This document shows positions 18,041 through 58,987 of a stretch of 64,000 nt of DNA, in pieces. The notes under the pieces were generated by a model. That model ran no database searches. It saw only the letters and a list, made by a program, of their open reading frames with translations, and was not told where the DNA came from. The stretch spans positions 64,022 through 128,021 of the forward strand of contig CAZWTT010000003.1 in the NCBI GenBank assembly GCA_964637315.1, in the 5' to 3' direction. Every line of letters starts with the position of its first letter. Position 1 is the stretch's first letter. Both the position numbers and the translations under genes were made by a program. This DNA comes from an uncultured Dehalococcoidia bacterium (GTDB lineage Bacteria > Chloroflexota > Dehalococcoidia > Lucifugimonadales > UBA2962).

Positions 18041-20536
18041 TTGGTGGCGTTCCATGCCGCGTTCATCCTCTCGTTGCTTTCCCTTCCACGCATCGAGTTA
18101 TGGTGGGTCCTGCGCCACCTCTTCGCCAGCTGGGAGACGCTCGTTGCCGTTGGCCTCTGGTATCTCACGTACCACGTCGCCATCTGGTGGCACGAGCGCG
18201 GTCACTACTGGCAGTCCGTCGCCTCCCGTACACTCCGTGAAGACCTCCTGCCCGCCGCTGAAAGCGCGATGCGGTCGGGTGGCGTCGGACGGTTCGTCTT
18301 TGAGTCCCGACTGTTCGCACTGGCACCCGTGGGACGGTTTCCGGGCATAAAGCGGCAGGGATTGGGTTACTACGTAGAGGCGCCGTTCAACCTCTCGGCC
18401 GCCGCAAAGGGGCCGGAGGCAAGCGGTCGGCTCGGTCTCCTGTTGCTACCGCTCGCCGGATTGTTGGTAGCGGTTGGCCTTGTCTGGGACGCCAGTTGGA
18501 CCGTCTTCATCGGCCGTTTGTTCTTTGGCATCGGAGCCGTCGCGCTGCTCGACTGTCTTCTCGCCGACCCGGGCAGGTATAGGGAGTTTCAACGGCAAGA
18601 GTCTCGTGCCCGTGCGGCGGCGGCAACGGTCCAAAAGACCGGGACTTGGCATGAAAAAGTAGCTTCCGTCGCGGAGACTATGCGCACCACCCGCTTGGCT
18701 GAGCGTCACTTCTCCGATGGCACCGTCGTCCGCGCTCCCTGGACTTTCCGGAACTCGGGCATGGGCGGCAGGCATACCGAGAGAGACTACCCGGAGAGCA
18801 ACATCAGCCTGCAAGAGTCGATGTTTGTCCCCCTGTCGGCTACGAGCTACGAAGACTCCCAGGAGATGACCGTGGCGCTACAGGGCCGCCTCAAGGAGAT
18901 CATCGACATCACCACCGGCTGCCGGGTCATGGGAATCGGCATGGAGGGTGGGCTGGCCGCCTACATTACGCCAGAACCAGGCGACGAAGTGCCCGAGCTT
19001 CGCCTATGGCGGATGATGCGGCGCGCTATTGAGGACAACGGCTACGCTGCGGGCACCGACGTGGCGATCGCCGTTGATGCCGCGGCATCCGAGCTTCAGC
19101 AGGCGTACCGGGAAACCTACGACCAGCCCGACGCCATCGGGTCGTACCTGTTCTGGCGTGACCAGAATCAGCAAATGAGCCGCGAAGAGATGCTCGCCCT
19201 ATACGAGAAGGCCATCTACGAACAGGATGTGCCCATCGTCAGTTTCGAGGACCCCTTCAGCGAGGACGACTGGGAGGGCTGGCAGGCCATGATGAATCGG
19301 CTGGGCGAACGGGTGCTCATCGTCGCCGACGACCTCGTCACGACCAAGGATTCCACGATCGAGAGAGCGTCCGCTAGGAACGCCGTCAATTCGGTGCTGG
19401 TCAAAGCCAACCAGATCGGCACACTGACCGAGACGACCGCCGCCATGGTGGTCGCCCTGGCGAAGGGCATGAACCTGATCGTCTCGCACCGCTCGCAATC
19501 GCCCAATGAGACGATGGAGGCTGAGATCGCCATGGCCGCCGGTTCGTTGGGGCTGAAGGCCGGCGGCGGAGCCAACACCGAGCGCTTGGTCAAATACGCA
19601 GCCGTGGCCGATGTCCTCAACGGACCCGACCAGCCGCCGCTCCAAGCCCCGCTCGACGGCGTGCCGACGGCCCTCGACTCCGCCGTCATCACGGAGATCA
19701 CCGCGAGAGAGGAGTACACCAACGCCGGTATGCCCACCGTCAGGGCGACCATCACCGCACGAGTGCCGGGAGACCCTCGCAAGCTGGTCTTCACCGGCTC
19801 CACGCCCCTCGGCACTTCGGCCGGATCCGACGAGGCGCGACATCTCGTCGATTCGGTCGTCGAACCGGGACCCATCGTCGATCGATATCCAGAGAAATTC
19901 GCGGTCCAGGCCGACGGCACCTACCGGTTTGTCGAGGGCCTCTCGGGTGAGCAGATCGACGGCGACCCTGAACTGGCGGAGTTGTGGAGAAGGGCGCGGC
20001 GCTTCAGCGGCAGGGGAGTCCTCAACGCAGTCGACAACGTCCGGGAGGTGCTTGGTCAGGCCTTTGTCGGCAAGGGGGCGCGCGAATTGGGTAGCCTCGC
20101 TGATATCGACCGGGCGCTGCTGCGCATCGAGCTTCAGACGGCGGGGGCGCGGGGCAAGGACTGCGGCGATCCGGTCGCGACCGGACAGCTCAAGGCGAAC
20201 ATGGGCATGAACGCCATCCTCTCAATGTCCCTGGCACTGGCCAGATTCAAAGCCTTCTCCGAGGGCAAGGAACTGTGGCAGCTGTTGCGGGAGCAGCTTA
20301 CGGGGACGCTTGAGGGGATTTCCAATAGCAGCCGGCGTAACGGGACCGGTCCATCGTTCGACCAGCTGGTCGCCAACGTGTGCTCGGCCAACCGGAGCGT
20401 CGAGGACAAGGGTGGACCGTTTTACGAGATCGTCAGGCAGCAGATGGCGATCTACGAGCCGGAGCCCGGTTCTCCACGAGGTGCAGCCTCGCTCGTCAGG
20501 TCTTCTTCGGCCGAGGCCTCATCGCTTCGGCAATAG
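18041..20536 (+). CDS. fusion protein: N-terminal 4-TM S2P/M50-like HExxH module + circularly permuted enolase (barrel domain first, N-terminal capping domain last)
   Basis: 831-aa uninterrupted ORF. Residues 41-57 read YLTYHVAIWWHERGHYW (compare RseP HEFGHFW). Residues about 218-525 carry the enolase barrel motifs in canonical order. Residues about 546-745 carry the enolase N-domain motifs. Details are in the findings. The TTG start at 18041 is uncertain. The frame is open from 17990. Confidence 0.75.
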   Translation: MVAFHAAFILSLLSLPRIELWWVLRHLFASWETLVAVGLWYLTYHVAIWWHERGHYWQSVASRTLREDLLPAAESAMRSGGVGRFVFESRLFALAPVGRFPGIKRQGLGYYVEAPFNLSAAAKGPEASGRLGLLLLPLAGLLVAVGLVWDASWTVFIGRLFFGIGAVALLDCLLADPGRYREFQRQESRARAAAATVQKTGTWHEKVASVAETMRTTRLAERHFSDGTVVRAPWTFRNSGMGGRHTERDYPESNISLQESMFVPLSATSYEDSQEMTVALQGRLKEIIDITTGCRVMGIGMEGGLAAYITPEPGDEVPELRLWRMMRRAIEDNGYAAGTDVAIAVDAAASELQQAYRETYDQPDAIGSYLFWRDQNQQMSREEMLALYEKAIYEQDVPIVSFEDPFSEDDWEGWQAMMNRLGERVLIVADDLVTTKDSTIERASARNAVNSVLVKANQIGTLTETTAAMVVALAKGMNLIVSHRSQSPNETMEAEIAMAAGSLGLKAGGGANTERLVKYAAVADVLNGPDQPPLQAPLDGVPTALDSAVITEITAREEYTNAGMPTVRATITARVPGDPRKLVFTGSTPLGTSAGSDEARHLVDSVVEPGPIVDRYPEKFAVQADGTYRFVEGLSGEQIDGDPELAELWRRARRFSGRGVLNAVDNVREVLGQAFVGKGARELGSLADIDRALLRIELQTAGARGKDCGDPVATGQLKANMGMNAILSMSLALARFKAFSEGKELWQLLREQLTGTLEGISNSSRRNGTGPSFDQLVANVCSANRSVEDKGGPFYEIVRQQMAIYEPEPGSPRGAASLVRSSSAEASSLRQ

Positions 20537-46667: not shown

Positions 46668-47582
46668 GTGCAAGTGAAAAGCCATACGAGCGTTAATACA
46701 GGGGGTGATAGCGTGACGGTCGTCATTCCCGCCTTCAATGAAGAGGATGCCGTTGCGACCGTCGTTGAGGCCCTGCTAAAGGTCCTGGAAAACTCCGGTT
46801 TGCGCCACGAGGTGCTTGTGGTGGACGACGGTTCTTCAGACTCGACGGCTGACGCCGCCGAAGGCGCCGGTGCGAGGGTCGTGCGGCATCGCATCAACCG
46901 TGGTTACGGGGCGGCCATCAAGTCTGGCATGAGAGCCGCGGCTTACGACCTTATCTGCATCACCGACGCCGATGGTACATACCCGTCAGAAGCCATCCCA
47001 GCACTGGTCGAGGCCGCCCACGACGGGGCCGATATGGCCGTCGCCTCCCGTACCGGTGCGAATGTCAGCATCCCGCTGGTGCGGCGACCGGCCAAATGGG
47101 TCATCCGCAAGATGGCGGAAGCCGTCGCAGGCATACCCATTCCAGACATCAATTCAGGGCTCCGTGTATTCCGCCGTAGTCAGGCCAGAGCCTATCTTGG
47201 CATCCTTCCTGACGGCTTTTCCTTTACCACCACCATCACCCTTGCCTTGCTGAGCGATGGCTACGAGGTTGCCTACCGGTCCATCGACTACGGCGAGAGG
47301 GTGGGGCGATCTAAGATTCGACCCGTGCGTGACACCCTCAATTTCGCCGGCCTAGTTGTGCGCATCGCGTTGTACTTCGTCCCACTCAAGTTCTTCCTGC
47401 CCGTTAGCGCCTTCCTGCTCGCCGTGGCCGTCGCCTGGGCGCTCGTGAGCAAGCTCGTGCTCGGCGCCCTGGCCGACGTCTCCAGCGTGATACTGGTGAT
47501 GGTCGCGATACAGGTGGCGGTTGTGGGACTTCTGGCCGAGATGATCAACCGGCGGCTGCCGGGCCGCTACAAGGACAGCTAG
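46668..47582 (+). CDS. GT2 polyprenyl-phosphate glycosyltransferase (DPM1/GtrB-like) with two C-terminal TM helices
   Basis: VTVVIPAFNEE, VVDDGSSDST, ITDADG (DxD) and a C-terminal TM pair. An alternative GTG start at 46713 is preceded by GGGGGTGA. Confidence 0.88.
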   Translation: MQVKSHTSVNTGGDSVTVVIPAFNEEDAVATVVEALLKVLENSGLRHEVLVVDDGSSDSTADAAEGAGARVVRHRINRGYGAAIKSGMRAAAYDLICITDADGTYPSEAIPALVEAAHDGADMAVASRTGANVSIPLVRRPAKWVIRKMAEAVAGIPIPDINSGLRVFRRSQARAYLGILPDGFSFTTTITLALLSDGYEVAYRSIDYGERVGRSKIRPVRDTLNFAGLVVRIALYFVPLKFFLPVSAFLLAVAVAWALVSKLVLGALADVSSVILVMVAIQVAVVGLLAEMINRRLPGRYKDS

Positions 47583-49252
47583 TGCCAGACGGCCGAGCCC
47601 CTCGCGAAGCCTACGCACGCCTGGCCCTGGATCAGGTGCCCCGACTGCTGGGCAACCTGGACCGCAACCCGTTCTCACCTACCTACGGATGCTTTCACCG
47701 CGACTACTGGCTCGAAAAAACCTCCGACTTCCCGGACGCAGTCAGGCAGTTCTCCGTCCACGCCCTGGCGCTGGTCTACTCGCACGACATGCCGGGCAAC
47801 CCGTACAGAGGCAACGCTCACGTCCGGGACTGGACCGTAGCGGCACTCGACTTCTGGGCGAACATTCAGCACGGGGACGGCAGCTTCGACGAGTTCTATC
47901 CCTACGAACGGGGCTGGGTCGGCCCCTCCGCATTCACGGCCTATGCAAGTGCGGAGGCTTTCGCCCTGCTCCGTGACGAGATGCCCGACGGCGTCTCAGC
48001 CCGCGTTACGACCGCTTTGCGAAAGGCGGCCCTGTTCATTGGGGCCGGTGAATCGGAGCAGGACCACCTCGGCAATCACCACGCCATGGCCTGCTTGGCG
48101 GTGAATACGGTGTCTCGTGTGCTCGACGACGACACTCTGGAGCCGGCCTACCAGCGCCTGTGGCAGGGCTTCCTGACCTACTACGACTGGGACGAAGGCT
48201 GGTGCCGGGAGTACGACGGCCCGGACCCGGGTTACCTTTCCGCGGTCGTGTCGTTTTTAGGCAAGATCTACGCCCACAATCCGGAACCGGAGCTGAAAGA
48301 GGTAATCGAGGGCGCGGTCCGCACCTGTGCTCACTTCCTCTACCCGGACGGAGGCTACGCCGGTACCCTGGGAAGTCGAAACACGGTTCATTTCTACCCC
48401 CACGGCTTCGAACTCATGGCGCCGGACGTTCCCCTGGCCGCAGCCATCGCTGAGAAGGCGCTGGTGTCCATCGCCTGGGGCGGACTGGTGCCACCGCCTG
48501 TCATGTCCGACCGCTACGTCGTGTACAGGGTGCCCGAGTACCTGCAGGCGTACCTGGACTACGGCGCAAGGCCAACACAGTTGCCTCCGTTACCCTCGGA
48601 AACCGAAGGACAGCGCACGGTCCTAGCCAGGGCCGGTGTCGCCTCCCGCACCGAGGGTCGGATGTACACGGTCGCCAACCTGGCGAAGGGGGGTCCCCTA
48701 AAGGTGTTTGACCGCACGAGGGGCCGCTCTCTACTGAACGACGCCGGGTTGATCGGTAGGCTGGCCTCCGGACGCACCTTCACCACGCAGTGGATAGACT
48801 CGGACAACCGGGTGTCCATCGAGGACGATAGGTGGTCGGTAGACGGCATCGCGGGCTACGTTCCCTCGGCGAAAGTCTTCACGCCCTTGAAGGGGCTCAT
48901 CTTCCGGGCCGTCATGGTCGCGGTGGGTTGGAACCCAGGCCTCTCGCACCTGGTTAAAGGCCGGATCAGGAAAACGCTTATCCTGACCCGTAAGCAGGCT
49001 CCGGTGCGCTTTTCACGCTTGCTGGCGTTCGAAAAGGACTCGGTGAGGGTTACCGATACCGTGATGCTTGACGCCGGTGCCCATGTCCAGAGCATGCGCA
49101 TAGGGGGAGAGTTCCACGTCCGCTACGTTCCCCAGAGCCGCTACTTCCAGCCGCACGAGCTAGACGACGGAGCCCTCCACCTCACCGATTCCGAACTGGC
49201 CTCCCTAAACAACGATCGCCGTTTGACCATTGAGAGGGTGGTCTCGCCTTGA
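47582..49252 (+). CDS. hypothetical protein (possible alpha/alpha-toroid N-domain + beta-rich C-domain)
   Basis: 556-aa ORF with a GTG start overlapping the GT2 stop by 1 nt. I recognised no family. The sequence has a periodic aromatic/Gly pattern (HGDGSFDEFYPYERGW...YPDGGYAGTLGSRN). Confidence 0.6.
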   Translation: MPDGRAPREAYARLALDQVPRLLGNLDRNPFSPTYGCFHRDYWLEKTSDFPDAVRQFSVHALALVYSHDMPGNPYRGNAHVRDWTVAALDFWANIQHGDGSFDEFYPYERGWVGPSAFTAYASAEAFALLRDEMPDGVSARVTTALRKAALFIGAGESEQDHLGNHHAMACLAVNTVSRVLDDDTLEPAYQRLWQGFLTYYDWDEGWCREYDGPDPGYLSAVVSFLGKIYAHNPEPELKEVIEGAVRTCAHFLYPDGGYAGTLGSRNTVHFYPHGFELMAPDVPLAAAIAEKALVSIAWGGLVPPPVMSDRYVVYRVPEYLQAYLDYGARPTQLPPLPSETEGQRTVLARAGVASRTEGRMYTVANLAKGGPLKVFDRTRGRSLLNDAGLIGRLASGRTFTTQWIDSDNRVSIEDDRWSVDGIAGYVPSAKVFTPLKGLIFRAVMVAVGWNPGLSHLVKGRIRKTLILTRKQAPVRFSRLLAFEKDSVRVTDTVMLDAGAHVQSMRIGGEFHVRYVPQSRYFQPHELDDGALHLTDSELASLNNDRRLTIERVVSP

Positions 49253-49929
49253 CCGACGCGCTGCCCCACGGCGTCTACGGTCCCGAGTACTACTACGGTC
49301 GCCTCGATAATCGGGCGCTCAAATACCGCCTCCGACGCCGCACCGACGAGGTCCGCAGAGCGGTGGAGACCCACCTGGATAGGCCACCGGCCACGGTCAT
49401 AGATGTCGGCACCGCAGACGCCCTCATGCTCGGCCTGCTGGACGGTGGCTGGCCTGGTGCCACCTTCGTTGGTCTGGAGATGAACGGCGACCTGCTCCGC
49501 GCTTCGGAAGTACCCGGCGCACACAAGGTCATTGGCGATGCGGTCCACCTGCCGTTGGCGAGCGGCGTCGCGGATGTGGTGGTTGCGACGGCGGTCATCG
49601 AGCACCTGGACGAGCCAGGTCTCCTAGTCGCCGAATGCCGCCGCGCGCTCGCCCCCGGCGGGGTGCTGGTCATCACCACGCCCGACCCGATGATGGAGCG
49701 CATCTCCGTCGCAGTCGGCCTGCTTAAGGGGGCCGGGCACCAACACACCTTCGACCTCAAGTCTCTGCGCTCGACAATTACAGAGGCTGGTCTGACCGTT
49801 GTCGAAACACGGAAATTCATGTTTTCGCCAGTCGGTTTCCCGGCCGAGCGCTCGATCGAGCGTGTTTTCGGTCCGCTCGGGCTGAGCCTGGTCATGGCCA
49901 ACCAGATCGCCGTTGGCAGAGCCGGCTAG
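49249..49929 (+). CDS. class I SAM-dependent methyltransferase
   Basis: VIDVGTADA (motif I) and LAPGGVLVITTP. The TTG start overlaps the upstream stop (TTGA). Confidence 0.8.
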   Translation: MTDALPHGVYGPEYYYGRLDNRALKYRLRRRTDEVRRAVETHLDRPPATVIDVGTADALMLGLLDGGWPGATFVGLEMNGDLLRASEVPGAHKVIGDAVHLPLASGVADVVVATAVIEHLDEPGLLVAECRRALAPGGVLVITTPDPMMERISVAVGLLKGAGHQHTFDLKSLRSTITEAGLTVVETRKFMFSPVGFPAERSIERVFGPLGLSLVMANQIAVGRAG

Positions 49930-50889
49930 ATGAAACTGGTTTTGAGGAACTGGCCCCGGCTGCTCGGTGTGGCGCTGGTCGTGGTTTTGCTCGTGAGAAT
50001 CGATCTGGCTGGCGTCTCCGACACATTGGGTGACGCCCACGTCGTCGGCCTTCTCATCGCCTTCGTGCTTTTGCTGCCGCTGGTTCTGCTCAAGTCGATG
50101 CGTTGGCAGCTCATCCTGGCCGTGCAGGGGGTCCGCCTCGGCACGATTCCCGCCTATCTCTCGTATCTGGGCAGCATGTTTCTCGGCGTCGTGACTCCGG
50201 GGCGGGTAGGGGAGTTCGCCCGCATCTTCCACGTCACCGAGAAGCATGGGGTGTCACGTACGTTGGCCTTCTCCAGCATCTTGGCCGACCGACTCTTCGA
50301 TCTCTACCTGCTATTGATCCTGGGCGCGTTGGCGCTCGCTGCGATCACGGATGGGGGAGTGCGGATCGTGGTCATCGTCGCCATAGCGGTCGCGGCCGGT
50401 ATCCCCCTGGTCGCCGTCGCTAGCGACAGGGTCTTCGGCTGGGCCCTGGTACCGGTGCGGTGGGGTAGGGCGCGTGTCCACAAAATGCCCTGGCGGCTGT
50501 TCGATCTGCTGGTCGAGGTACGAACCGGTCTGCGGTCCGTCACCGGTCCGGCCTTGGTGGTCTCGGCCCTTCTCACAGTCGCCGCGTATGCGGTGTTCTT
50601 TACTCAGGCCTACATCATCGCCCGTTCGGCGGGTATCGACGCCGGCTTCGTGACCGTTAGCTTGGTCATCGCTCTGGGGAGTTTGGTCGCCGTCCTCCCG
50701 ATATCGATATCGGGCTTGGGTACGAGAGACGCGGTGATCGTTGCCTATCTCGGCGCGGAGGGCGTAGCAGGGGATTCCGCGTTGGGTTTCTCGATCCTCA
50801 TCTTCCTCGTTTTCGTCGTCGGCAGCGGTCTCATCGGCGCTGCGGCATGGCTCGTAAAGCCCGTGAAACTCGGTGCGCTCAAGCCGTGA
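49930..50889 (+). CDS. flippase-like polytopic membrane protein (lysyl-PG synthase TM-region / UPF0104-like)
   Basis: 319 aa with about 8 TM segments, KSMRWQLIL and TPGRVGEFAR. The ATG directly abuts the methyltransferase stop. Confidence 0.72.
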   Translation: MKLVLRNWPRLLGVALVVVLLVRIDLAGVSDTLGDAHVVGLLIAFVLLLPLVLLKSMRWQLILAVQGVRLGTIPAYLSYLGSMFLGVVTPGRVGEFARIFHVTEKHGVSRTLAFSSILADRLFDLYLLLILGALALAAITDGGVRIVVIVAIAVAAGIPLVAVASDRVFGWALVPVRWGRARVHKMPWRLFDLLVEVRTGLRSVTGPALVVSALLTVAAYAVFFTQAYIIARSAGIDAGFVTVSLVIALGSLVAVLPISISGLGTRDAVIVAYLGAEGVAGDSALGFSILIFLVFVVGSGLIGAAAWLVKPVKLGALKP

Positions 50890-51038
50890 AGGGTCTGCGA
50901 AAGCTCGTCGAGAGCCGGGTCGGGATGATCGGATTGACCATCGCAGTCGCCTGGATTGGAGCCGTCTTCGGTTTCTACTTCTCTTTCAAAGCGAGGGAGA
51001 TCTGGCCCAAGGTGGTCGAGGTGCTCGGGGGCGGCTGA
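50886..51038 (+). CDS. small single-TM protein S1 (paralogous to S2 and S3), immediately upstream of GT-C 1
   Basis: GTG overlaps the upstream stop (GTGA). Sequence: VKGLRKLVESRVGMIGLTIAVAWIGAVFGFYFSFKAREIWPKVVEVLGGG*. The track lists a longer version, 50847-51038. Confidence 0.5.
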   Translation: MKGLRKLVESRVGMIGLTIAVAWIGAVFGFYFSFKAREIWPKVVEVLGGG

Positions 51039-51039
51039 A

Positions 51040-52845
51040 TTGTTCGTCGTCGACCTGTTGGTGGCCGGGCTGGTGGCGATGTCCGCCTGGGGACTCGGCC
51101 GCATCCTGCTGAAGCTGTCGGGATTGGCTCCGAGCCACCGTTCGACCCGTGTCGTCCTGTCGGCCGGACTCGGCTTCGGTGTGCTCGTATACCTGCAGAT
51201 GATATTGGGGTTCGCTGGCGCCTTCGACCGCTCTGTGGCCTGGGGCGTGCTCGGCAGCATGGCCCTCGTGGGCCTGGCCGGTGCGGTCCGATGGCGCCCG
51301 GTTCTCCCATCGCCCGGCATCCGTGGTGTGACAATTGGCCGCCACTGGCCGTACCTCGGCGTCGGCGCGGCGATCGTGGTGTACGCGGTTGGCTACCTGA
51401 TAGTGGCGATGGCGCCGACGTTGGAGGGCGACTCGCTGGCCGGGTATCTCGTCACCGCCAGGGACTACGCCCGCGAGGGGGCCATCGTGCCGGTGGAGTA
51501 CGCCTATAACAGCGTCTTCCCTGCCAACGGCCAGATGCTGTCGACCTTCGGTTACCTGCTGAAGGGCCAGATCGCCGCCCAGCTTATTCTCAGCTGGACA
51601 ATGGGGATATTGGCGGCCGGCGTCGTGTACACCATCGGCCGGACCTGGCTCTCCAGTCGGGCCGCGCTCGTGGGCGTCGGGCTCTGGTACGCGATGACCT
51701 CGGTCGCGTACTTGGCCGCGTCCGGCAAGATAGACCTCGCTTGGGCGGCGTTCGACCTGTTGTCGCTGCTTGCCTTTAGCCACTGGTACTTCGCCACAAA
51801 GGGTTGTCGTGACTGGCGCTGGCTGGCGCTTGCGGGCCTGTTCTTGGGCCTTGCCGGTGGTGTCAAACAGGCGAGTGTCTTTACCGCCTTCGCCATGGCC
51901 GTTGGCATCTCCTATCGCCTCGTGTTAGATCGTGATACCGACGTTCGCAGCTGGACGCTGGCCTACGTTCCCCTGGCGCTGCTGGCCGTCCCCGCCGTCA
52001 TCTGGGTGGCCCGGGCTCTGGTGCTGGCCGACTCGCTCGGCTTCACCGGGGCGAACCTGAATAACGACAGCGGCGCGGGAGGCTTTTTCAAGGCGATCTG
52101 GGACATGTCGATGCTGGGCAACGCCGGTGATACCGAGGGCCCCAACGGAAAGTCGATCGGTCCGACCGTACTGGCCGTCGTGCCGTTGCTCATAGTGTTC
52201 CGCAACGTGGATCGCCGGATTTGGCACATGCTCGCCTTCGCCCTGTTGATGGTCATCGTGTGGTTCTTCGCCGTCCAGCGTGCGCGCCATCTGCTGCCGA
52301 CACTCGGCCTGCTGGCCCTGGTCGCCGGGTACGTGGTGGCGCTCATGATCGAGTGGCGGCCCATGGTCGGTCGTACGCTGACGCTCGTCCTTTTGGCTGC
52401 ATTGACAGTCAACTTCGCGACCTGGGGTTGGGTGAACTTCGTGTCCCTAGATCATGCGACGAGGGCCTTCAACGTTAAGACCGACGACGAGTTCTTCCGG
52501 CGCAACCTTCCGGAGCTGCCCTGGTATCCGAACGCGACCGTCACAGCCTTCGCGCGCGATGAGACCCCGGTCACCGCGGTACTGGCAGCGCCCTCGGGCT
52601 CCAACGGCCTCTACATGGAGCGAACACTGCTCCAGAACCGGTTCCAGTCGGAGGCCGACGTGGCCGACGCGGACGAGTTCGTGGCCGGGCTCAGGGCCGA
52701 CGGAGTGACCCACGTCTATGTAAACGACTTCGTGGTCGGCCAGCGCGGCCACGAGCAGGCTTGGCTAGCTCGACTCGATTTCCAGGCTCGCTATCTGACC
52801 GAACTGGCGTGCGATGCCGGCCAGTGCCTCTACGAGCTGAAGTGA
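51040..52845 (+). CDS. GT-C-fold-like polytopic membrane glycosyltransferase, paralog 1 (ArnT/PMT-like)
   Basis: More than 10 TM segments. The first-loop acidic motif is APTLEGDSLAGYL...Y.REG. The C-terminal soluble domain contains GVTHVYV. TTG at 51040 follows the S1 stop by 1 nt. The track start at 50956 overlaps S1. Confidence 0.7.
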   Translation: MFVVDLLVAGLVAMSAWGLGRILLKLSGLAPSHRSTRVVLSAGLGFGVLVYLQMILGFAGAFDRSVAWGVLGSMALVGLAGAVRWRPVLPSPGIRGVTIGRHWPYLGVGAAIVVYAVGYLIVAMAPTLEGDSLAGYLVTARDYAREGAIVPVEYAYNSVFPANGQMLSTFGYLLKGQIAAQLILSWTMGILAAGVVYTIGRTWLSSRAALVGVGLWYAMTSVAYLAASGKIDLAWAAFDLLSLLAFSHWYFATKGCRDWRWLALAGLFLGLAGGVKQASVFTAFAMAVGISYRLVLDRDTDVRSWTLAYVPLALLAVPAVIWVARALVLADSLGFTGANLNNDSGAGGFFKAIWDMSMLGNAGDTEGPNGKSIGPTVLAVVPLLIVFRNVDRRIWHMLAFALLMVIVWFFAVQRARHLLPTLGLLALVAGYVVALMIEWRPMVGRTLTLVLLAALTVNFATWGWVNFVSLDHATRAFNVKTDDEFFRRNLPELPWYPNATVTAFARDETPVTAVLAAPSGSNGLYMERTLLQNRFQSEADVADADEFVAGLRADGVTHVYVNDFVVGQRGHEQAWLARLDFQARYLTELACDAGQCLYELK

Positions 52846-53021
52846 TCCAGCGACTGTTAAAAAAAAGAACCACACCCGGCCCCCGCGCTAGGCGTGCGTT
52901 CCTGATCGCCGCCGCACTGTGGCTGGTGGGCATCCAGATCTACTTCTACGTCGACCTGCTCATCGAGCGTCGCGGCCAGGTGTCGAGCGTGCTCAGCAGG
53001 CTCGTGGACCTGTTCGGCTGA
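52842..53021 (+). CDS. small single-TM protein S2
   Basis: GTG overlaps the GT-C 1 stop (GTGA). Sequence: VIQRLLKKRTTPGPRARRAFLIAAALWLVGIQIYFYVDLLIERRGQVSSVLSRLVDLFG*. It contains an A8 run at 52859-52866. Its stop overlaps the GT-C 2 ATG (TGATG). Confidence 0.5.
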   Translation: MIQRLLKKRTTPGPRARRAFLIAAALWLVGIQIYFYVDLLIERRGQVSSVLSRLVDLFG

Positions 53022-54940
53022 TGGAACACTTTATCAATCTTTTGCTGGTCGCCGCCATGCTCGTTGCCGGGAGTGGCGTCGGGCTGCTGGTGCTGAAAAG
53101 CCTCGCGCTGAAGGGCACTGACCGCCCCCAGCAGGTCTTGCTGGCCTCTGGGCTGGGCCTGGGATTGATCGGCTACGTGCCGTTCGTTCTGGGTGTTTCC
53201 GGCGGCCTGACGACAGCCGGGTTGCTGGCCACTATCCTTGTGGCAATCGGCGCGGGTCTGGGTGGCTGGTACAGCTTCGTCTGGCCCGCCGACCTGCGCA
53301 GTGTCTCAGGCCTTCCCGGTCGGCTATGGAGGCGACTCCGGCGTCTGGACCCGGCCAGTTGGGTGCTTGTCGGATTCATCGCGCTGATGGGCCTGCTTAA
53401 TTTGCTGGCCGCGATGGCGCCGGTGATCGGAATCGACGAGCTGATCTACCGCGTGCGGCTCCCTGATCTGTACTTGGAGCAAGGCGGCTTTTCTTACCTG
53501 CCGACGCTGGAGGTTCACCAGCAGCCTCAACAGGTGCAGATGCTTCAAATGTGGCTGATGGGGCTGGGTAGCGACTCGGCAACCCAACTAGTGCAATGGG
53601 CGATGGGCCTTCTGCTGGTGGCCGCGGTCGTTGACCTGGCCCGGCGCTGGGTGCCCGTAACGATCGCTCTCGCGGCGGGCGCGGTCTTCTACGGTGTCAG
53701 CGACGTGGTGGTCTTGTCCGCACGGGCTGTCCCCGACCTAGCCAACGGCCTATTCCTGTTCCTCGCCTTCGTGGCGTTCGTCCGGTGGATGGACACCGAC
53801 GAGGACCGGTGGCTCGTCGTCGTCGGCGTCCTCGCCGGGCTCTTCGCGGCGGGGTCCAGGTTGCCGGGGGCTTACGGCGCCATCGGCCTCGCTGCCCTCG
53901 CCATCCTTTACGCTTGGCGTCGGCCGGACCGGGGCCCGGTGCGTGTGGTTGGCGCCGGCGCCATCGTGGGCGTGGCAGCCCTGGTGATGGTCGTGCCGTG
54001 GTTCGCCAAGGCCTGGGCGCATACAGGCAACCCGCTATGGCCGTATCTTGGTGGGATCTTCGGAGCCAGGGACTTCAACGAGTCCGCAGCCGCTTACATG
54101 GCGGCCAATCAAGAGCGAGATGTGGGGCCCTGGCGCTCGGCGTCCTGGATACTGGCGTCTCCCTGGGACCTTGTGTTCGATCCCAAGAAGTTCCGTAGCG
54201 GAGTGATGGGTCCGTTCATTCTGGCCGCCATCCCCCTGCTCGCGGTTGTGAAGGTGGACAAGCGCATCTGGTACCTGTCGGCAGGGGTGGTGACGACCGG
54301 CGCCCTGTGGTACTGGACGTTCGTCAGGCTGCGTTCGTTCATCCCCGTGATCGCCCTCATGGTTGTCATCGCCGCCTACCTCATCTGGGTCTTGTGGCGT
54401 TCTGAAGAACTACCGGAACTGGCGAGAAAGGCGCTGGTGGGCTTGATGGCCACGTCGTTGGCGCTCTGGATACTATTTGCACTCGGAACAGTTGCTCGAT
54501 TCCACACCGCCTCGATCGTGGCAACGATCACAGGACAGGACGACGATGAGTTCCTCTCACAGCGGCTCAACGAGGACGACATGGGCTTTCCCTGGTACCT
54601 CGACTACCTGGCCCTGAACGAAACTCTCCCGGCCGGAAGCTCCCTGCTCCTCTGGGACACCCGTAGCTACTACCTCAACTTCGAGACGGAAAGACACTAC
54701 CTGATAGCTAGAAAGGACCCCTTTCCGGAGAGTATGAAAGACCCGGCCTATGTTAGAGCCCGGGTCGAGGAGCTCGGGAGCGACTACGTCGTGCTGTGGC
54801 CCGAGGTACGCTACGTGACCGAGTACCCGCCCGGCATGTGGGTCGAGGACAGCCTGCACGCGTTGTGCGGCGAGGAGTGGCCGGTGGTCTATTTGAGTGA
54901 GAATATGATGGTGTGCGAGGTATCGACGGGTGGTAAATAG
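53021..54940 (+). CDS. GT-C-fold-like polytopic membrane glycosyltransferase, paralog 2
   Basis: Starts MEHFINLLLVAAML. The first loop reads APVIGIDELIYRVRLPDLYLEQG. The C-terminal soluble domain is collinear with those of paralogs 1 and 3. The track start at 52919 overlaps S2. Confidence 0.72.
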   Translation: MEHFINLLLVAAMLVAGSGVGLLVLKSLALKGTDRPQQVLLASGLGLGLIGYVPFVLGVSGGLTTAGLLATILVAIGAGLGGWYSFVWPADLRSVSGLPGRLWRRLRRLDPASWVLVGFIALMGLLNLLAAMAPVIGIDELIYRVRLPDLYLEQGGFSYLPTLEVHQQPQQVQMLQMWLMGLGSDSATQLVQWAMGLLLVAAVVDLARRWVPVTIALAAGAVFYGVSDVVVLSARAVPDLANGLFLFLAFVAFVRWMDTDEDRWLVVVGVLAGLFAAGSRLPGAYGAIGLAALAILYAWRRPDRGPVRVVGAGAIVGVAALVMVVPWFAKAWAHTGNPLWPYLGGIFGARDFNESAAAYMAANQERDVGPWRSASWILASPWDLVFDPKKFRSGVMGPFILAAIPLLAVVKVDKRIWYLSAGVVTTGALWYWTFVRLRSFIPVIALMVVIAAYLIWVLWRSEELPELARKALVGLMATSLALWILFALGTVARFHTASIVATITGQDDDEFLSQRLNEDDMGFPWYLDYLALNETLPAGSSLLLWDTRSYYLNFETERHYLIARKDPFPESMKDPAYVRARVEELGSDYVVLWPEVRYVTEYPPGMWVEDSLHALCGEEWPVVYLSENMMVCEVSTGGK

Positions 54941-55733
54941 CGCTGTCGGCTATGGTGTCAGCAAGGCCATAAGTGGCCTCCTCGAAAGGGGGATGGCTAA
55001 CGCTTACTATCGAACGGTGCGAATGCTCCGCCGACCCATGGCCAGACTCGGAGTATTGCGTTACCTGGAGGGCAGGAAAGAGAACAGGGCCTTTTTATTC
55101 CTGAGAAGTATCTTTTCGATCTGGGACCCCGAGGACCTCGTCAACCTGGACCTCCCATGGTGGACTTTCGAAGCCACAAGGGTGGTCGATGGATACCTTC
55201 GGTCCCTCCACGGCCGGGCGGTCGTGTTCGAGTATGGCGGGGGGGCCAGCACCGCTTGGCTGGCAAAGCGGTGTGCCAAGGTCTACAGCTTGGACCACGA
55301 TCCGAAGTGGACTCGTCTGACGGCCAAGTTGTGCGAGACCTCTACAAACGTCACCTTTTTGACGCGTCCACCCGATCCGGACTCAGAACACACAGATGAG
55401 CGCTTCAGCTCCGGGAAGGTGGGTTACAGAGGGTTGACGTTCAAGAGTTATGTGGACTCCATTCGGTCGGTCAATCGCAGGTTTGACATGATAGTGATCG
55501 ATGGGAGATGCAGGTCCGAAAGCCTGTTGGCCGCGGTGCCCGCTATCAAGGAGACTGGAATCATCGTGTTCGATGACAGCAGCAGGAAGCGGTATCAGCG
55601 GACGCTTCGCGAGAGTGGACTTGAGCTCAAGAGGCATCGTGGCCTTACCCCGGGGGCGCCTATTCGAACCGAGACATCGATACTTGCTCCCAGTTCCGAC
55701 ACTCTGGAGCACCTATGCGAAATCGCGAACTAG
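54930..55733 (+). CDS. putative class I SAM-dependent methyltransferase (Methyltransf_24-like)
   Basis: VVFEYGGGASTAWLAKRC (E-x-G-x-G-x-S-T), YSLDHD and FDMIVIDGR. The start is uncertain (GTG 54930 or ATG 54993). Confidence 0.6.
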   Translation: MVNSAVGYGVSKAISGLLERGMANAYYRTVRMLRRPMARLGVLRYLEGRKENRAFLFLRSIFSIWDPEDLVNLDLPWWTFEATRVVDGYLRSLHGRAVVFEYGGGASTAWLAKRCAKVYSLDHDPKWTRLTAKLCETSTNVTFLTRPPDPDSEHTDERFSSGKVGYRGLTFKSYVDSIRSVNRRFDMIVIDGRCRSESLLAAVPAIKETGIIVFDDSSRKRYQRTLRESGLELKRHRGLTPGAPIRTETSILAPSSDTLEHLCEIAN

Positions 55734-55803
55734 CTGCGATTCAACGAAAGGGTTTGGCTGGTTACCGCCATCACCTGGACCCCTTTGAGAGCAGTCAAGT
55801 AAC

Positions 55804-56739
55804 TTGAGCAACGAACCCCGATCTGCCGAGCAAGCCACAGGTGAACCCTCCCTAACGGTGGGCCTGCCCGTCTACAATGAAGTCCAGGCCGTCCGGTCCA
55901 CCATCCTGTCCGTCCGTGACGTGGTCGAAGGGATGGGGGTGAGCTACGAGATACTGGCGGTCGATGACGGCTCGGACGACGGCACATCGGAAGAACTCGA
56001 CGAGCTGGCGTCTAGGCTGGACGGCGTGCTCACCGTTATCCGACACCCCTACAATCTTGGTAACGGCTCTTCGGTCAAGACTGCCATACGCGCGGCGCGA
56101 GGCGAGGTGCTGGTGCTGATGGACGCAGATGGCCAGCACGACCCGGCCGACATCCCCCGACTGTACGAGCGTGTGGGACCCTACGACCTGGTCGTCGGCG
56201 CCAGGACGCGCAAGACGAAGGGCGAGTGGCCACGCCGTTTTGCCAACCTCGTGTTCGACGCGCTGGCCTCCTATCTGACCGACTTTAAGATAAGGGACCT
56301 GACGTCGGGTTTCCGGGCGTTCAAGACCGAAGTCGTCCTGGACTTCGTGCACCTGTTGCCGAATAAGTTCTCCTACCCGACGACCAGCACCATGGCCTTC
56401 GTCAAGGCGGGATACGCGGTCGACTTCGTCACCGTCGAGGCGTCTCCACGAGAAGGGAAGAGCAAGGTACGCCCGGTGCGGGACGGAGTCCGCTTCCTCG
56501 TCATCATCGGCAAGATGGTGATGCTGTTTGAGCCCATGCGCGTCTTCATGCCTGCAGCGCTGGTGCTGCTCCTCATGGCCGTCGCCTCGTTCGTCTTCAC
56601 CGTCGTCGATGAGAGCCGCCTGCATATACCCAACTCGGCCGTGTTCCTGGCCGTGTCGGCCGTGATCGTGTTCCTGATCGGCATGGTGGCCGCGCAGGTG
56701 GCCGATCTGAGAGTTTCTCTGGGCTCTCGTCGCCGCTGA
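55804..56739 (+). CDS. GT2 polyprenyl-phosphate glycosyltransferase (DPM1/GtrB-like), second copy
   Basis: LTVGLPVYNE, AVDDGSDDGT, LMDADGQHD and two C-terminal TM helices. It is collinear with the gene at 46668-47582. Confidence 0.88.
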   Translation: MSNEPRSAEQATGEPSLTVGLPVYNEVQAVRSTILSVRDVVEGMGVSYEILAVDDGSDDGTSEELDELASRLDGVLTVIRHPYNLGNGSSVKTAIRAARGEVLVLMDADGQHDPADIPRLYERVGPYDLVVGARTRKTKGEWPRRFANLVFDALASYLTDFKIRDLTSGFRAFKTEVVLDFVHLLPNKFSYPTTSTMAFVKAGYAVDFVTVEASPREGKSKVRPVRDGVRFLVIIGKMVMLFEPMRVFMPAALVLLLMAVASFVFTVVDESRLHIPNSAVFLAVSAVIVFLIGMVAAQVADLRVSLGSRRR

Positions 56740-56741
56740 CG

Positions 56742-56921
56742 GTGGGATCTATCAGGTCAGTCCTGACCGGACTCTGGCTCATTCGGTTCGTCAGGGAGCA
56801 CTGGCGCCCGCTGGCCTTCTCAGTTTGGGCAATTGGTGTGCTGGTGGCGTACCTGGGCCAGTTCGCAGGCTCTCTGGACGGAATCCGCAAAGTCCTTGAC
56901 CGCATCTTCGGCGGAGGCTGA
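56742..56921 (+). CDS. small single-TM protein S3 (below the ORF-track length cutoff)
   Basis: My own translation from the GTG at 56742: VGSIRSVLTGLWLIRFVREHWRPLAFSVWAIGVLVAYLGQFAGSLDGIRKVLDRIFGGG* (stop at 56919-56921). It has the same architecture and C-terminal ...VL.R(I/L).GG(G) ending as S1 and S2. It ends 5 nt before the GT-C 3 start. Confidence 0.45.
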   Translation: MGSIRSVLTGLWLIRFVREHWRPLAFSVWAIGVLVAYLGQFAGSLDGIRKVLDRIFGGG

Positions 56922-56926
56922 GGCGC

Positions 56927-58987
56927 TTGACCGCGGACATCCTCGTCGCACTTGCGTTCAACGCCGGCCTCATGGCCTTCAGCTATGGCGTGGGCCGTTC
57001 CATCATCCCGGCCTTCGGCGCCACCGGCCCGGTGGGTCTCAGGCTGGTCGACCGTTCGCTCATGGCGGTCGCGCTCGGCTTCGCCGCCATCACGGCCGTG
57101 TACCTGTTTCTTGGACTCGGCGATTCGCTGACCGAACCTGCTGCCTGGGCGGTATACGCTGCCGCCGGGACGATAACCCTCGCTCAGTATCGAGTGCTGG
57201 TGAAAGAGTCGAGGAGCGTCTTAAAGCGCCTGAAGCACCTGCGACCTCCATTCTGGGCGATGGCACTGGCTGCTGTGATCGCGATCCACGCGTTTTTAAA
57301 CCTGATCGGCGCGATCGCCCCGCCGAGCATGGCGGACCCCCTGCGACACCACTTGGCGTCTCCCGCGTACTACGCTGAGGTCGGCGGCTTTCCCTTCGTG
57401 CCGATCATTTTCTGGAACGTGCCCGGTGTCCTGCACGTCGACTACACGGTCGAGTTGCTGATCGCGAGTGACATAGCCCCGGCCGTAACTCACTTCTCGT
57501 TTTCGATACTGACCGCCGCCGCCGTGTTCGTTCTGGGGCGTCGTTTCGCGGGTTGGCGTGTGGGACTCGCCGCTGCCGCCGTCTTCTATTCGTTGCCCAT
57601 GACCACCGAGCTGGCCGCGTCCCCGATGGTGGAGATGGGCGCGGCGTTTTTCGCCGTCCTGTCGGTGTATGCCTTGCTCACGGTGGGCAAGGGGGCGGAC
57701 CTGCGCTGGATATTGCTCGCCGGTCTGCTCGGCGGGCTAGCCGGCGCCACCAAGATGTGGGCCTTGCTCGCGGGACCGGCCGGATTGGCCGTGATACTAG
57801 TGGCACAGGGGACCGGTGTCCTACAAAAACCGCGCGAGACGGCGTACTCACTCATTGCGTTTTCCCTCGCGTTCGGGCTGATACTGAGCCCCTGGCTCAT
57901 CCGCAACTTCGCGTCTGCTGGCGACCCGTTGTGGCCCATCGGCTACCAAGTATTCCACGGCGACATGTGGACAGCTTGGCATTTCGAGAAGTTTTCGGCA
58001 TGGGAAACGGGCCCGGGGAAGTCGGTGGTCGACTTCATATTGGGCCCGTGGAACCTCACCAACGACGTTGGCCTGTTTACGCAGGACCGGGGGCCTCTCA
58101 GCGGCGCGCTGCTTACTCCTGTCCTGCTCATCTTCATCCCCGCCGCCTGGCTGTTCGGGGCCGCACGAGACCGGGCGGTCCCGAACCGTGCGGTCGTAAC
58201 CATGCTCGCGGCCCTTGCGGCCTTCGCGGTGTTGTCGTACGTGGTGTGGTTCGCCGGATACCAGCAGCCCAGGTACATCCAGGTCGTCCATCCTCTCTTG
58301 GCGGTAATCGCGGCGGTGGGAGTGGTGGCGGTGGTCGGCGTCAACCACCGCTGGCTCACCATGACCGCCAAGGTCCTTTTCGCGCTTTCTCTTGTCGGCA
58401 CCCTGGGCGTGGGCATCGCATTCAACTCCGGATTCTTCCCGGTGGTGTTTGGGGCCGAGTCACGAGAGGAGTTTCTCGAGGCCAAGGTCTCGAATATCTC
58501 CTCGATTGTCTGGGTGAACCAAAACCTCCCGGATGACGCCAAGGTTTTGGTGATGGGCCTCGCCGCCTGGTACTACTCCGAGCGTGACTGGCTCGTGGGG
58601 GACTCGGCCTACCAGGGCCACCTCGCCTACCATGACATGAACCATCCAGATGGTCTGATGAGGAAATTACGCGAAGTGGGCGTTACACATGTATTGGTCC
58701 AGGGCGCGACTGATGCCGAGCCGACGCTGCTCGGCTGGGCCGCCCGCGTCGGTGGACCGGGATATCGAGATCGGACCATGACGCAGCTACTGGAGGACAT
58801 GCGGTCCACGCCGGTTACGCCGAACGATTTTGAGGCGAGGCCATTCGTCCTGCTCGCCGGACTGGAGGCCGATGGCCGACTGGCCCTGCTGCACCGGGGA
58901 GAGGAGACGGTCGTGCGCAGCCGCACGTTCGGCGGTGCGGACACCGTCGAGTTTCTCGTCTACGAGCTGGTTGGGGCTGAGGATTGA
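56927..58987 (+). CDS. GT-C-fold-like polytopic membrane glycosyltransferase, paralog 3
   Basis: 686 aa with a TTG start. The first loop reads APPSMADPLRHHLASPAYYAEVG. The C-terminal soluble domain contains GVTHVLV. Confidence 0.72.
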   Translation: MTADILVALAFNAGLMAFSYGVGRSIIPAFGATGPVGLRLVDRSLMAVALGFAAITAVYLFLGLGDSLTEPAAWAVYAAAGTITLAQYRVLVKESRSVLKRLKHLRPPFWAMALAAVIAIHAFLNLIGAIAPPSMADPLRHHLASPAYYAEVGGFPFVPIIFWNVPGVLHVDYTVELLIASDIAPAVTHFSFSILTAAAVFVLGRRFAGWRVGLAAAAVFYSLPMTTELAASPMVEMGAAFFAVLSVYALLTVGKGADLRWILLAGLLGGLAGATKMWALLAGPAGLAVILVAQGTGVLQKPRETAYSLIAFSLAFGLILSPWLIRNFASAGDPLWPIGYQVFHGDMWTAWHFEKFSAWETGPGKSVVDFILGPWNLTNDVGLFTQDRGPLSGALLTPVLLIFIPAAWLFGAARDRAVPNRAVVTMLAALAAFAVLSYVVWFAGYQQPRYIQVVHPLLAVIAAVGVVAVVGVNHRWLTMTAKVLFALSLVGTLGVGIAFNSGFFPVVFGAESREEFLEAKVSNISSIVWVNQNLPDDAKVLVMGLAAWYYSERDWLVGDSAYQGHLAYHDMNHPDGLMRKLREVGVTHVLVQGATDAEPTLLGWAARVGGPGYRDRTMTQLLEDMRSTPVTPNDFEARPFVLLAGLEADGRLALLHRGEETVVRSRTFGGADTVEFLVYELVGAED

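Follow-up and report, generated by a model that had tools for sequence, protein, structure and literature searches.

Three paired genes for single-helix peptides and GT-C glycosyltransferases in a putative surface-glycan cluster of an uncultured Dehalococcoidia bacterium

We have analyzed a 64-kb stretch of contig CAZWTT010000003.1 from an uncultured Dehalococcoidia bacterium, which we call the window. Between 46.6 and 59 kb it carries a co-directional run of mostly overlapping genes on the + strand (Table 1). Three of these genes encode large polytopic membrane proteins, L1, L2 and L3, each preceded by a small open reading frame (ORF), S1, S2 and S3, for a peptide with a single transmembrane (TM) helix. 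An initial annotation had proposed these pairs, and all six ORFs were found where it placed them. The three large genes, which are predicted to encode GT-C glycosyltransferases, share the run with two family-2 glycosyltransferase genes (GT2a and GT2b) and a gene for a flippase-like protein (Flp). This arrangement is kept in related loci, which we refer to below by three-digit numbers (L005 and so on).

The small genes S1, S2 and S3

A hidden Markov model (HMM) of the S peptides was searched against 6209 six-frame ORFs of at least 30 amino acids (aa) from the window and 29 related loci. Thirteen genome loci and 15 metagenome loci had been fetched by L homology alone, the genome loci via an alignment of L1 orthologs, and the metagenome loci were left out of the building of the S profile, so that they provide an independent validation. 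Exactly three matches were found in the window, to S1 (E = 4.7e-16), S3 (E = 1.9e-14) and S2 (E = 8.3e-13). Every match with E < 1e-3 is an S ORF lying on the strand of the L genes and adjoining one of them. The only other match with E below 1 is an S1-type ORF after L1 in L015 (E = 0.004); everything else had E > 1. All but two of the matches end at the start of an L gene. The exceptions, both located just after L1, are S2 in L005 and the weakly matching downstream S in L015. In the co-occurrence check that the initial annotation suggested, S recurs beside its own L subfamily in contigs of Dehalococcoidia/SAR202 and Gemmatimonadota.

The S genes are under purifying selection. The ratio of nonsynonymous to synonymous substitution rates (dN/dS) was 0.13–0.54 in 10 ortholog pairs, including 0.36 for S1 compared with L005, 0.32–0.48 for S2 and 0.21–0.54 for S3. 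The reading frame is maintained across genomes ranging from approximately 29% to 64% GC, and more than 20 independent assemblies, drawn from several phyla, retain the frame, the stop codon and the frame offset relative to L. Orthologs of S1 are located upstream of L1 in L005–L007, L009–L013 and L016, while S3 orthologs precede L3 in at least 15 loci, including loci that were fetched by L3 homology alone. A SAR202 contig whose L1 ortholog is only 50% identical carries the same three S–L pairs. S1, S2 and S3 are real genes.

Could the small ORFs nevertheless be chance occurrences, or N-terminal pieces of the L proteins that were split off by a frameshift or a wrongly assigned start? In another frame, the longest ORFs of L1 and L2 do extend upstream into part of S, and a fusion of S with L would have a continuous topology. 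Yet the conservation of frame, stop and offset across so many assemblies speaks against this, as do the dN/dS values below 1. Moreover, the orthologs have in-frame stop codons 0–8 codons upstream of the L starts. L cannot therefore read through S, and on these grounds we rejected S as a part of L translated from an upstream start. Nor was any fused S::L protein found among 1.84 billion representative proteins. We consider an artefact of this kind extremely unlikely.

In public data the S family is under-annotated. Public gene callers report 32 S-like proteins of 43–68 aa, all named 'hypothetical protein' and all lacking a Pfam domain, and a full HMMER scan of the 1.84 billion representatives found S matches in only 21 clusters. 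A 133,089-bp NCBI contig carrying L1, L2 and S2 of the window has S2 called as a hypothetical protein (P0075) with the same reading as ours. The exact 59-aa product of S3 is absent from the public protein collection. The start of S1 is placed at 50886, but it may lie instead at an in-frame ATG 39 nt upstream at 50847, overlapping the end of Flp and giving a peptide of 63 aa. The 63-aa form is recorded on the same NCBI contig and likewise in close relatives; both lengths, 50 and 63 aa, are represented among public gene calls, and the more distant S1 orthologs are 41–52 aa in length.

A single tryptophan in the TM helix is invariant in all 25 aligned S sequences. Alignment of the subfamily profiles with hhalign is collinear around this residue, with probabilities of 85% for S2–S3, 75% for S1–S3 and 38% for S1–S2. 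Support of this kind for a single family is modest, as expected for proteins of 50 residues, and S1, S2 and S3 appear to constitute one family marked by this single tryptophan. Within the family each subfamily has its own TM motif (W..G/A.VFG.YF in S1, YFY.DLLIERR in S2 and QF in S3), and the amphipathic tails are conserved. S1–S3 gave no match to Pfam or NCBIfam at E ≤ 0.1, and a search of all 25 sequences against Pfam returned only scattered chance matches with E ≥ 0.011. The S profile compared with all PDB chain sequences, oligosaccharyltransferase complexes included, gave only two chance matches to a G-protein-coupled receptor (E ≥ 0.36). Judged by sequence, S belongs to no described family.

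Two further observations concern S2. Its tail (LSRLVDL) resembles the first residues of L2 (M-E/S-H-L/I-x-D/N-L), and MAFFT repeatedly aligned the two, both at 52995–53045 of the window and in orthologs. The likeness may be due to chance or may be a trace of shared origin. In L011 (13834–14307) a divergent L2-like GT-C gene, whose product is 33% identical to L2, follows a short ORF (VRILLVAWFTIVGVAVLVAIF) that encodes a basic stretch and a single TM helix with a tryptophan in it. The score of this ORF against the S2 profile is only 4 bits, but it may be a very divergent S.

The large proteins and their linkage to S

L1, L2 and L3 are collinear across approximately 520–620 residues, with BLASTP identities of 25% for L1–L2 (E = 3e-20), 22% for L2–L3 (E = 2e-16) and 24% for L1–L3 (E = 1e-5). 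At 22–25% identity they are distant paralogs of one another, as had been proposed. All three exceed the Pfam gathering score of PF13231 (PMT_2), which is 26.1 bits, and public homologs of L1 and L2 carry PF13231 and/or PF02366. The C-terminal part of L3 has an additional weak match to DUF1420. AlphaFold2 models were calculated for L1 (predicted template modeling score, pTM = 0.86) and L2 (pTM = 0.82). In Foldseek searches the L1 model matched ArnT 5f15 with E = 3e-7, and ArnT was also the top match of L2 with E = 1.3e-5. For both models ArnT (5f15/5ezm) was best, followed by STT3, AglB, DPY19, AftA, ALG9/12, PglB, AftB, PimE, Pmt and Emb. L1 and L2 are therefore predicted to have the GT-C fold, and the same fold is assigned to L3 solely by paralogy. 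The initial annotation had named as grounds for abandoning its proposal a lack of selection or conservation in the small ORFs, large proteins reading through them, and a fold other than GT-C; the analysis instead found selection and conservation, intervening stop codons, and models of GT-C type.

L1 has approximately 14 TM helices and a C-terminal periplasmic α/β domain. The motif of the first outside loop that was noted at the outset is borne out by the three-way alignment, in which A125, P126, D131, L133, Y143 and G147 (L1 numbering) are invariant. D131, within the motif AP(T/V/P)x3-5D, is invariant across these paralogs as well as in 31 orthologs of L1. E484/F485 and W495 are also invariant in the three proteins. 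By contrast, the GVTHV(Y/L)V motif that had been ascribed to all three is present in L1 and L3 only, L2 having AYVRARV instead. The PMT_2 match in L1 begins only at residue 170, and three confident helices (pLDDT, the per-residue confidence of the model, 89–97) precede the helix of the Asp loop. We take these to be an N-terminal extension relative to ArnT, in a comparison that draws partly on general knowledge of that enzyme. The public gene call for L1 begins 13 residues after 51040, and a search for contigs encoding the L1 product of the window itself found none on record.

Charge distributions provide a predicted topology. In 21 of 25 S sequences the N-terminal segment is the more positive, with a net charge of +2.8 compared with +0.3 for the C-terminal segment, suggesting that S is oriented with its N-terminus inside and its C-terminus outside. 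In L1, loops a–b and c–TM1 carry a net positive charge and the Asp loop carries a net negative one. Since this bias would place the former two inside and the Asp loop outside, the N-terminus of L is predicted to lie outside.

The S genes are closely linked to the L genes. Upstream sequence of at least 160 nt is available for 40 L genes, and in 36 of these an S stop codon falls between −20 and +19 nt of the predicted L start. The gene that precedes S is variable by comparison, and depending on the locus it may be Flp, the methyltransferase gene MT226, L1, GT2b or another methyltransferase. As S stays beside L while its upstream neighbor changes, S tracks L. In addition, the S subfamily always matches that of its L gene (S1 with L1, S2 with L2 and S3 with L3), and this holds outside the set used to train the profiles and in L015. 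The simplest history suggested by this correspondence is that the S–L pair was duplicated as a unit and the two partners then diverged together.

L015 (29% GC) has a different arrangement. No S precedes its L1 gene, and the S1-type ORF lies just after L1 (11865–12011), with no L2 following. We rejected the idea that an alternative genetic code hides a fused S in this locus, because an in-frame TAA is present. At 9950–10000 of L015 the L1 gene has no ATG, GTG or TTG near the homologous N-terminus, and an ATT approximately 7 nt after a GAGG is the likely start.

The junctions between S and L have the appearance of translational coupling. In the window the gaps from S to L are +1 nt (S1–L1), −1 nt (S2–L2) and +5 nt (S3–L3). 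Among 25 junctions with assigned starts the gap is −4, −1, +1, +4, +5 or +7 nt in 24, and +14 nt in one. On their upstream sides, the GTG of S1 overlaps the TGA of Flp, that of S2 overlaps the TGA of L1 (GTGA), and that of S3 lies 2 nt past the GT2b stop; the end of S2 overlaps the start of L2 (TGATG). A Shine–Dalgarno-like site is often located inside the tail codons of S. For example, the glycine codons of the S3 tail contain a GGAGG that could serve L3, the junction reading ggcggaggcTGAggcgcTTG.

This double use of G-rich glycine codons at S C-termini is observed both at this junction (56905–56929 of the window; ggcggaggcTGA...TTG) and at 9975–10003 of L007 (taggaggcacttag...ATG). Because these codons also form Shine–Dalgarno-like sites, part of the conservation of the S tails may be exerted at the level of the RNA.

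These features would be consistent with a role for S as a translated leader acting in cis. The signal-anchor would direct the ribosome, with its mRNA, to the membrane, and coupling would then start L, leaving a peptide with little function after its insertion. The stop–start overlaps or gaps of ≤7 nt in nearly all pairs, the TTG or GTG starts used by L1 and L3, the Shine–Dalgarno-like sequences within S, and the unusual first helix of an L protein predicted to have its N-terminus outside can all be read in this way. However, a leader of this sort needs hydrophobicity only, and S has an invariant tryptophan, subfamily-specific TM motifs and conserved amphipathic tails, with dN/dS well below 1. 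Furthermore, there are two uncoupled arrangements. Coupling of S to L is impossible in L015, where the S1-type gene is downstream of L1, and in L005, where S2 is not adjacent to L2. We therefore judge that S is unlikely to act merely as a leader in cis.

Neighboring genes

The genes of the run are listed in Table 1. The initial annotation described two GtrB/DPM1-like GT2 enzymes and a UPF0104 flippase-like protein at the locus, and the matches to PF00535 and to PF03706/TIGR00374 support that description. The best NCBIfam matches of GT2a are AglJ, dolichyl-P-hexose transferase, PpgS and ArnC, and those of GT2b are AglJ, PgfS and ArnC; all are far below the equivalog cut-offs. GT2a, homologs of which are kept in related loci, is a candidate polyprenyl-phosphate sugar synthase. 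Flp is a candidate flippase for a lipid-linked sugar. Among the ORFs scanned in 43–64 kb (those of at least 200 aa plus S1–S3) there was no flippase of the GtrA/SMR, Wzx or MATE type, and the PF03706/TIGR00374 protein sits where a dedicated flippase would be expected.

Table 1. Genes of the co-directional run and their assignments
Feature	Position	Strand	Product	Match or other characteristic
GT2a	46668–47582	+	GtrB/DPM1/AglJ-like family-2 glycosyltransferase, hydrophobic C-terminus	PF00535, 5e-30
X556	47582–49252	+	556-aa soluble protein	
MT226	49249–49929	+	S-adenosylmethionine-dependent methyltransferase	Pfam Methyltransf_23/11
Flp	49930–50889	+	Flippase-like polytopic membrane protein	PF03706 (UPF0104, LPG_synthase_TM), 3e-37; TIGR00374 'flippase-like domain', 1e-21
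S1	50886–51038	+	50-aa single-TM peptide	Basic N-terminus, invariant Trp in TM helix, tail EIWPKVVEVLGGG
L1	51040–52845	+	Predicted GT-C (PMT_2/ArnT-like) glycosyltransferase	PF13231, 32.3 bits
S2	52842–53021	+	59-aa single-TM peptide	Tail VSSVLSRLVDLFG
L2	53021–54940	+	Predicted GT-C (PMT_2) glycosyltransferase	PF13231, 26.8 bits
MT24	54930–55733	+	Methyltransf_24-type methyltransferase	PF13578, 2e-6
GT2b	55804–56739	+	Second GtrB/DPM1-like GT2, C-terminal membrane anchor	PF00535, 1.7e-29
S3	56742–56921	+	59-aa single-TM peptide	Tail GIRKVLDRIFGGG
L3	56927–58987	+	Predicted GT-C (PMT_2) glycosyltransferase, most divergent paralog	PF13231, 27.7 bits

X556 has no sequence match in Pfam, NCBIfam or PDB. 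It was detected in seven related loci (L005, L007, L009, L011, L012, L013 and L015) at 47–83% identity, directly after a GT2a homolog in all seven, and these span Chloroflexota, Gemmatimonadota and one low-GC uncultured bacterium. X556 is a conserved component of the cluster. Upstream of the run are genes for asparagine synthase, a heparinase II/III-like protein, a GT4 glycosyltransferase, a Wzy_C protein and a DUF4012 protein, and downstream of L3 are GT4 glycosyltransferases and a carbamoyltransferase. Given this flanking gene content, the S–L module seems to lie inside a large surface-glycan cluster. The closest relatives are metagenome-assembled genomes labeled Dehalococcoidia and SAR202, with protein identities of 77–81%, and the gene set recurs in loci of Dehalococcoidia, SAR202 and Gemmatimonadota.

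Since S1 directly follows Flp, overlapping its stop codon, in the window and in L005, L006, L010, L011, L013 and L016, and S3 follows Flp in L010, S might be a partner of the flippase, either working with it alone or tethering it to the GT-C for direct hand-over of the sugar. L017, a contig of 2456 bp (Logan SRR22387860), provides the only fusion of S that was found. At 80–1267 a single ORF of 395 aa (P0106) combines Flp with an S3-type peptide, and an L3-like GT-C gene follows with a 4-nt overlap. The combined ORF may be a natural fusion, or it may have arisen through a frameshift, the contig being of low coverage. Such a fusion would be topologically compatible with an S whose N-terminus is inside, but it is known from this single 2.5-kb contig. 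The numbers and orders of the genes do not conform to a flippase partner. Flp genes number just one or two per locus, compared with three S genes, and S2 never adjoins Flp. In the SAR202 loci L007, L009 and L012 the neighbor upstream of S1 is the methyltransferase MT226, and L007, the one of these that was checked, has its flippase-like gene after L2. In L015 Flp abuts L1, with the S1-type gene on the opposite side of L1. An adaptor role can be compatible with a subunit of the GT-C, but as the main role of S it is opposed by gene counts and orders, and we think it improbable.

An activator of the GT2 synthase, rather than a partner of the GT-C, was also considered. Small membrane proteins that stimulate such GT2s are known, as GacJ does with GacI, and like S the GacJ/Rv3632 (DUF2304) proteins are encoded in three-component glycosylation loci; in the window S3 begins just after GT2b. 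However, the partner of GacJ is a GT2 and not a GT-C, while the position of S tracks the GT-C. There are three S genes and two GT2 genes. S1 and S2 never adjoin a GT2; S3 does so only in some loci, and in L006 (the same as L002) it follows a methyltransferase. GacJ/Rv3632 proteins are approximately 110 aa with several helices, unlike S with its one, and none of the 25 S sequences matched DUF2304 or another Pfam family. A GacJ-like function was rejected on gene order and counts, and we regard it as very improbable.

One feature elsewhere in the window may be mentioned here. An 831-aa ORF at 18041–20536 (+) has an unusual order of Pfam domains, with Enolase_C (residues 252–522) preceding Enolase_N (550–749). 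It could be two fused or misjoined genes of the enolase superfamily, or an over-long ORF.

A probable role for S as a subunit of the GT-C enzymes

On balance it seems probable that each S is a translationally coupled small subunit of its GT-C, acting in a Gtr-like pathway of decoration with lipid-linked sugars. In such a pathway GT2a and GT2b would load sugars onto polyprenyl phosphate at the cytoplasmic face. The PF03706 protein, or another flippase, would then move the lipid-linked sugar across the membrane. In decorating the surface glycan at the outer face, L1, L2 and L3 would each add a sugar at their own position or to their own acceptor; the GT-C fold and the neighboring GT2 genes suggest that the donor for the L enzymes is a polyprenyl-phosphate-linked sugar. 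Translational coupling would ensure that S and L are made 1:1 and in the same place. S would insert with its N-terminus inside and its C-terminus outside, and would pack on the three-helix N-terminal extension of L by means of its TM helix and its short amphipathic tail in the periplasm. The four helices together would form an accessory module on the GT-C core, and S would thus be a stabilizing or assembly subunit, in the manner of Ost4 on STT3, and not a catalyst.

A number of points weigh against this interpretation or limit it. We infer physical contact between S and L, and AlphaFold2 did not place S with confidence. A fusion of S1 and L1 gave pLDDT of 34–57 in the S region, for which there were no homologs in the alignment, and a fusion of S2 and L2 gave 43–69 with the tail unstructured, the S2 and L2 rows being unpaired. 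Neither calculation contained inter-chain covariation, and the S2–L2 alignment misplaces the first seven residues of the rows containing L2 only, so that we do not take these values as negative evidence. No S::L fusion was found among 40 loci or the 1.84 billion representative proteins. L014 (Acidobacteriota) has an L1 ortholog without S on a 3.3-kb contig, so that S is perhaps not universal among these L genes. In L005 S2 has stayed after L1, and the methyltransferase gene MT24 lies between S2 and L2. Together with L015, these exceptions indicate that the adjacency of S and L is the rule but that an upstream position is not absolute. Lastly, the donor sugars, the acceptor and the flippase role of the PF03706 protein are proposed from family membership only.

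A more extended proposal is that S is an obligate, co-translated TM subunit of a distinct GT-C clade, and that the four-helix module docks the PF03706 protein so that the sugar passes directly from flippase to transferase. A natural Flp::S fusion would then be a snapshot of that complex. We consider this doubtful.

The subunit interpretation can be compared with several known systems. Three-component systems of the Gtr type comprise a GtrB-like GT2, a flippase and a GT-C, examples being GtrABC, CsbB/GtcA/YfhO, GacI/J/K/L and ORF15/14/12 of C. youngae (PMC11127046, PMC8035078). The present locus likewise encodes membrane-anchored GT2s, a candidate flippase and GT-Cs with an outside Asp loop in a surface-glycan cluster, and the use of a lipid-linked donor with transfer outside the membrane would be shared (PMC11127046). 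It differs in that the flippase candidate is of the PF03706 (MprF-flippase-like) type and not GtrA/SMR, Wzx or MATE, in having three GT-Cs per locus, and in that every GT-C comes with a single-TM peptide of its own and with three additional helices at the N-terminus. In the Gtr-system literature reached by keyword search we met no small-peptide partner of the GT-C component, and for PMT_2/GT39 enzymes of SAR202 or Dehalococcoidia, literature searches found no report of a small partner.

A functional parallel may be found in eukaryotes. Ost4 is a mini-subunit of approximately 36 aa with a single TM helix, bound to STT3, the GT-C catalytic subunit of the oligosaccharyltransferase. Like S it is a very small single-helix membrane protein associated with a GT-C, and STT3 is among the top structural matches of L1 and L2. 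The comparison of the S profile with PDB chains revealed no sequence relationship, and S is distinguished by its periplasmic amphipathic tail and basic cytoplasmic N-terminus. S is also encoded with its enzyme and translationally coupled to it, while its association with L is proposed, in contrast to the bound state of Ost4 and STT3.

A bacterial parallel comes from mycobacteria. According to a July 2026 preprint, nearly all mycobacterial GT-Cs rely on protein partners. One of these, ML0614/Rv2401A, has 95 aa, one TM helix and a short helix in the periplasm, and from AlphaFold3 and genetics it is predicted to associate with the GT-C MptB beside TM1, TM2 and TM14 (bioRxiv 10.64898/2026.07.15.738315). 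This is the same kind of architecture as that proposed here for S. But at 95 aa ML0614 is a longer and actinobacterial protein, set beside S by its description and not by sequence, and as far as the preprint text shows it is not part of a duplicated, subfamily-specific gene pair. The statement in the initial annotation that the small partner could not be attached to a described family therefore stands for S itself, which matches none; small single-helix partners of GT-Cs as such, however, are already known (Ost4) or predicted (ML0614 with MptB). What appears to be new is an undescribed family of small peptides, co-duplicated and subfamily-matched with a GT-C clade that carries an N-terminal extension.

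Bacterial GT-Cs build and decorate cell envelopes, and both their assembly and the supply of their lipid-linked donors are poorly understood. The host organisms of this cluster are uncultured and known here from genomes alone, and the locus provides an independent, purely genomic example of GT-C partners from a phylum other than that of the mycobacteria. It also nominates PF03706 proteins as candidate flippases for polyprenyl-phosphate sugars. Finally, three peptide–enzyme pairs that were seemingly co-duplicated and remain matched by subfamily constitute a natural experiment in the specificity of such partners.

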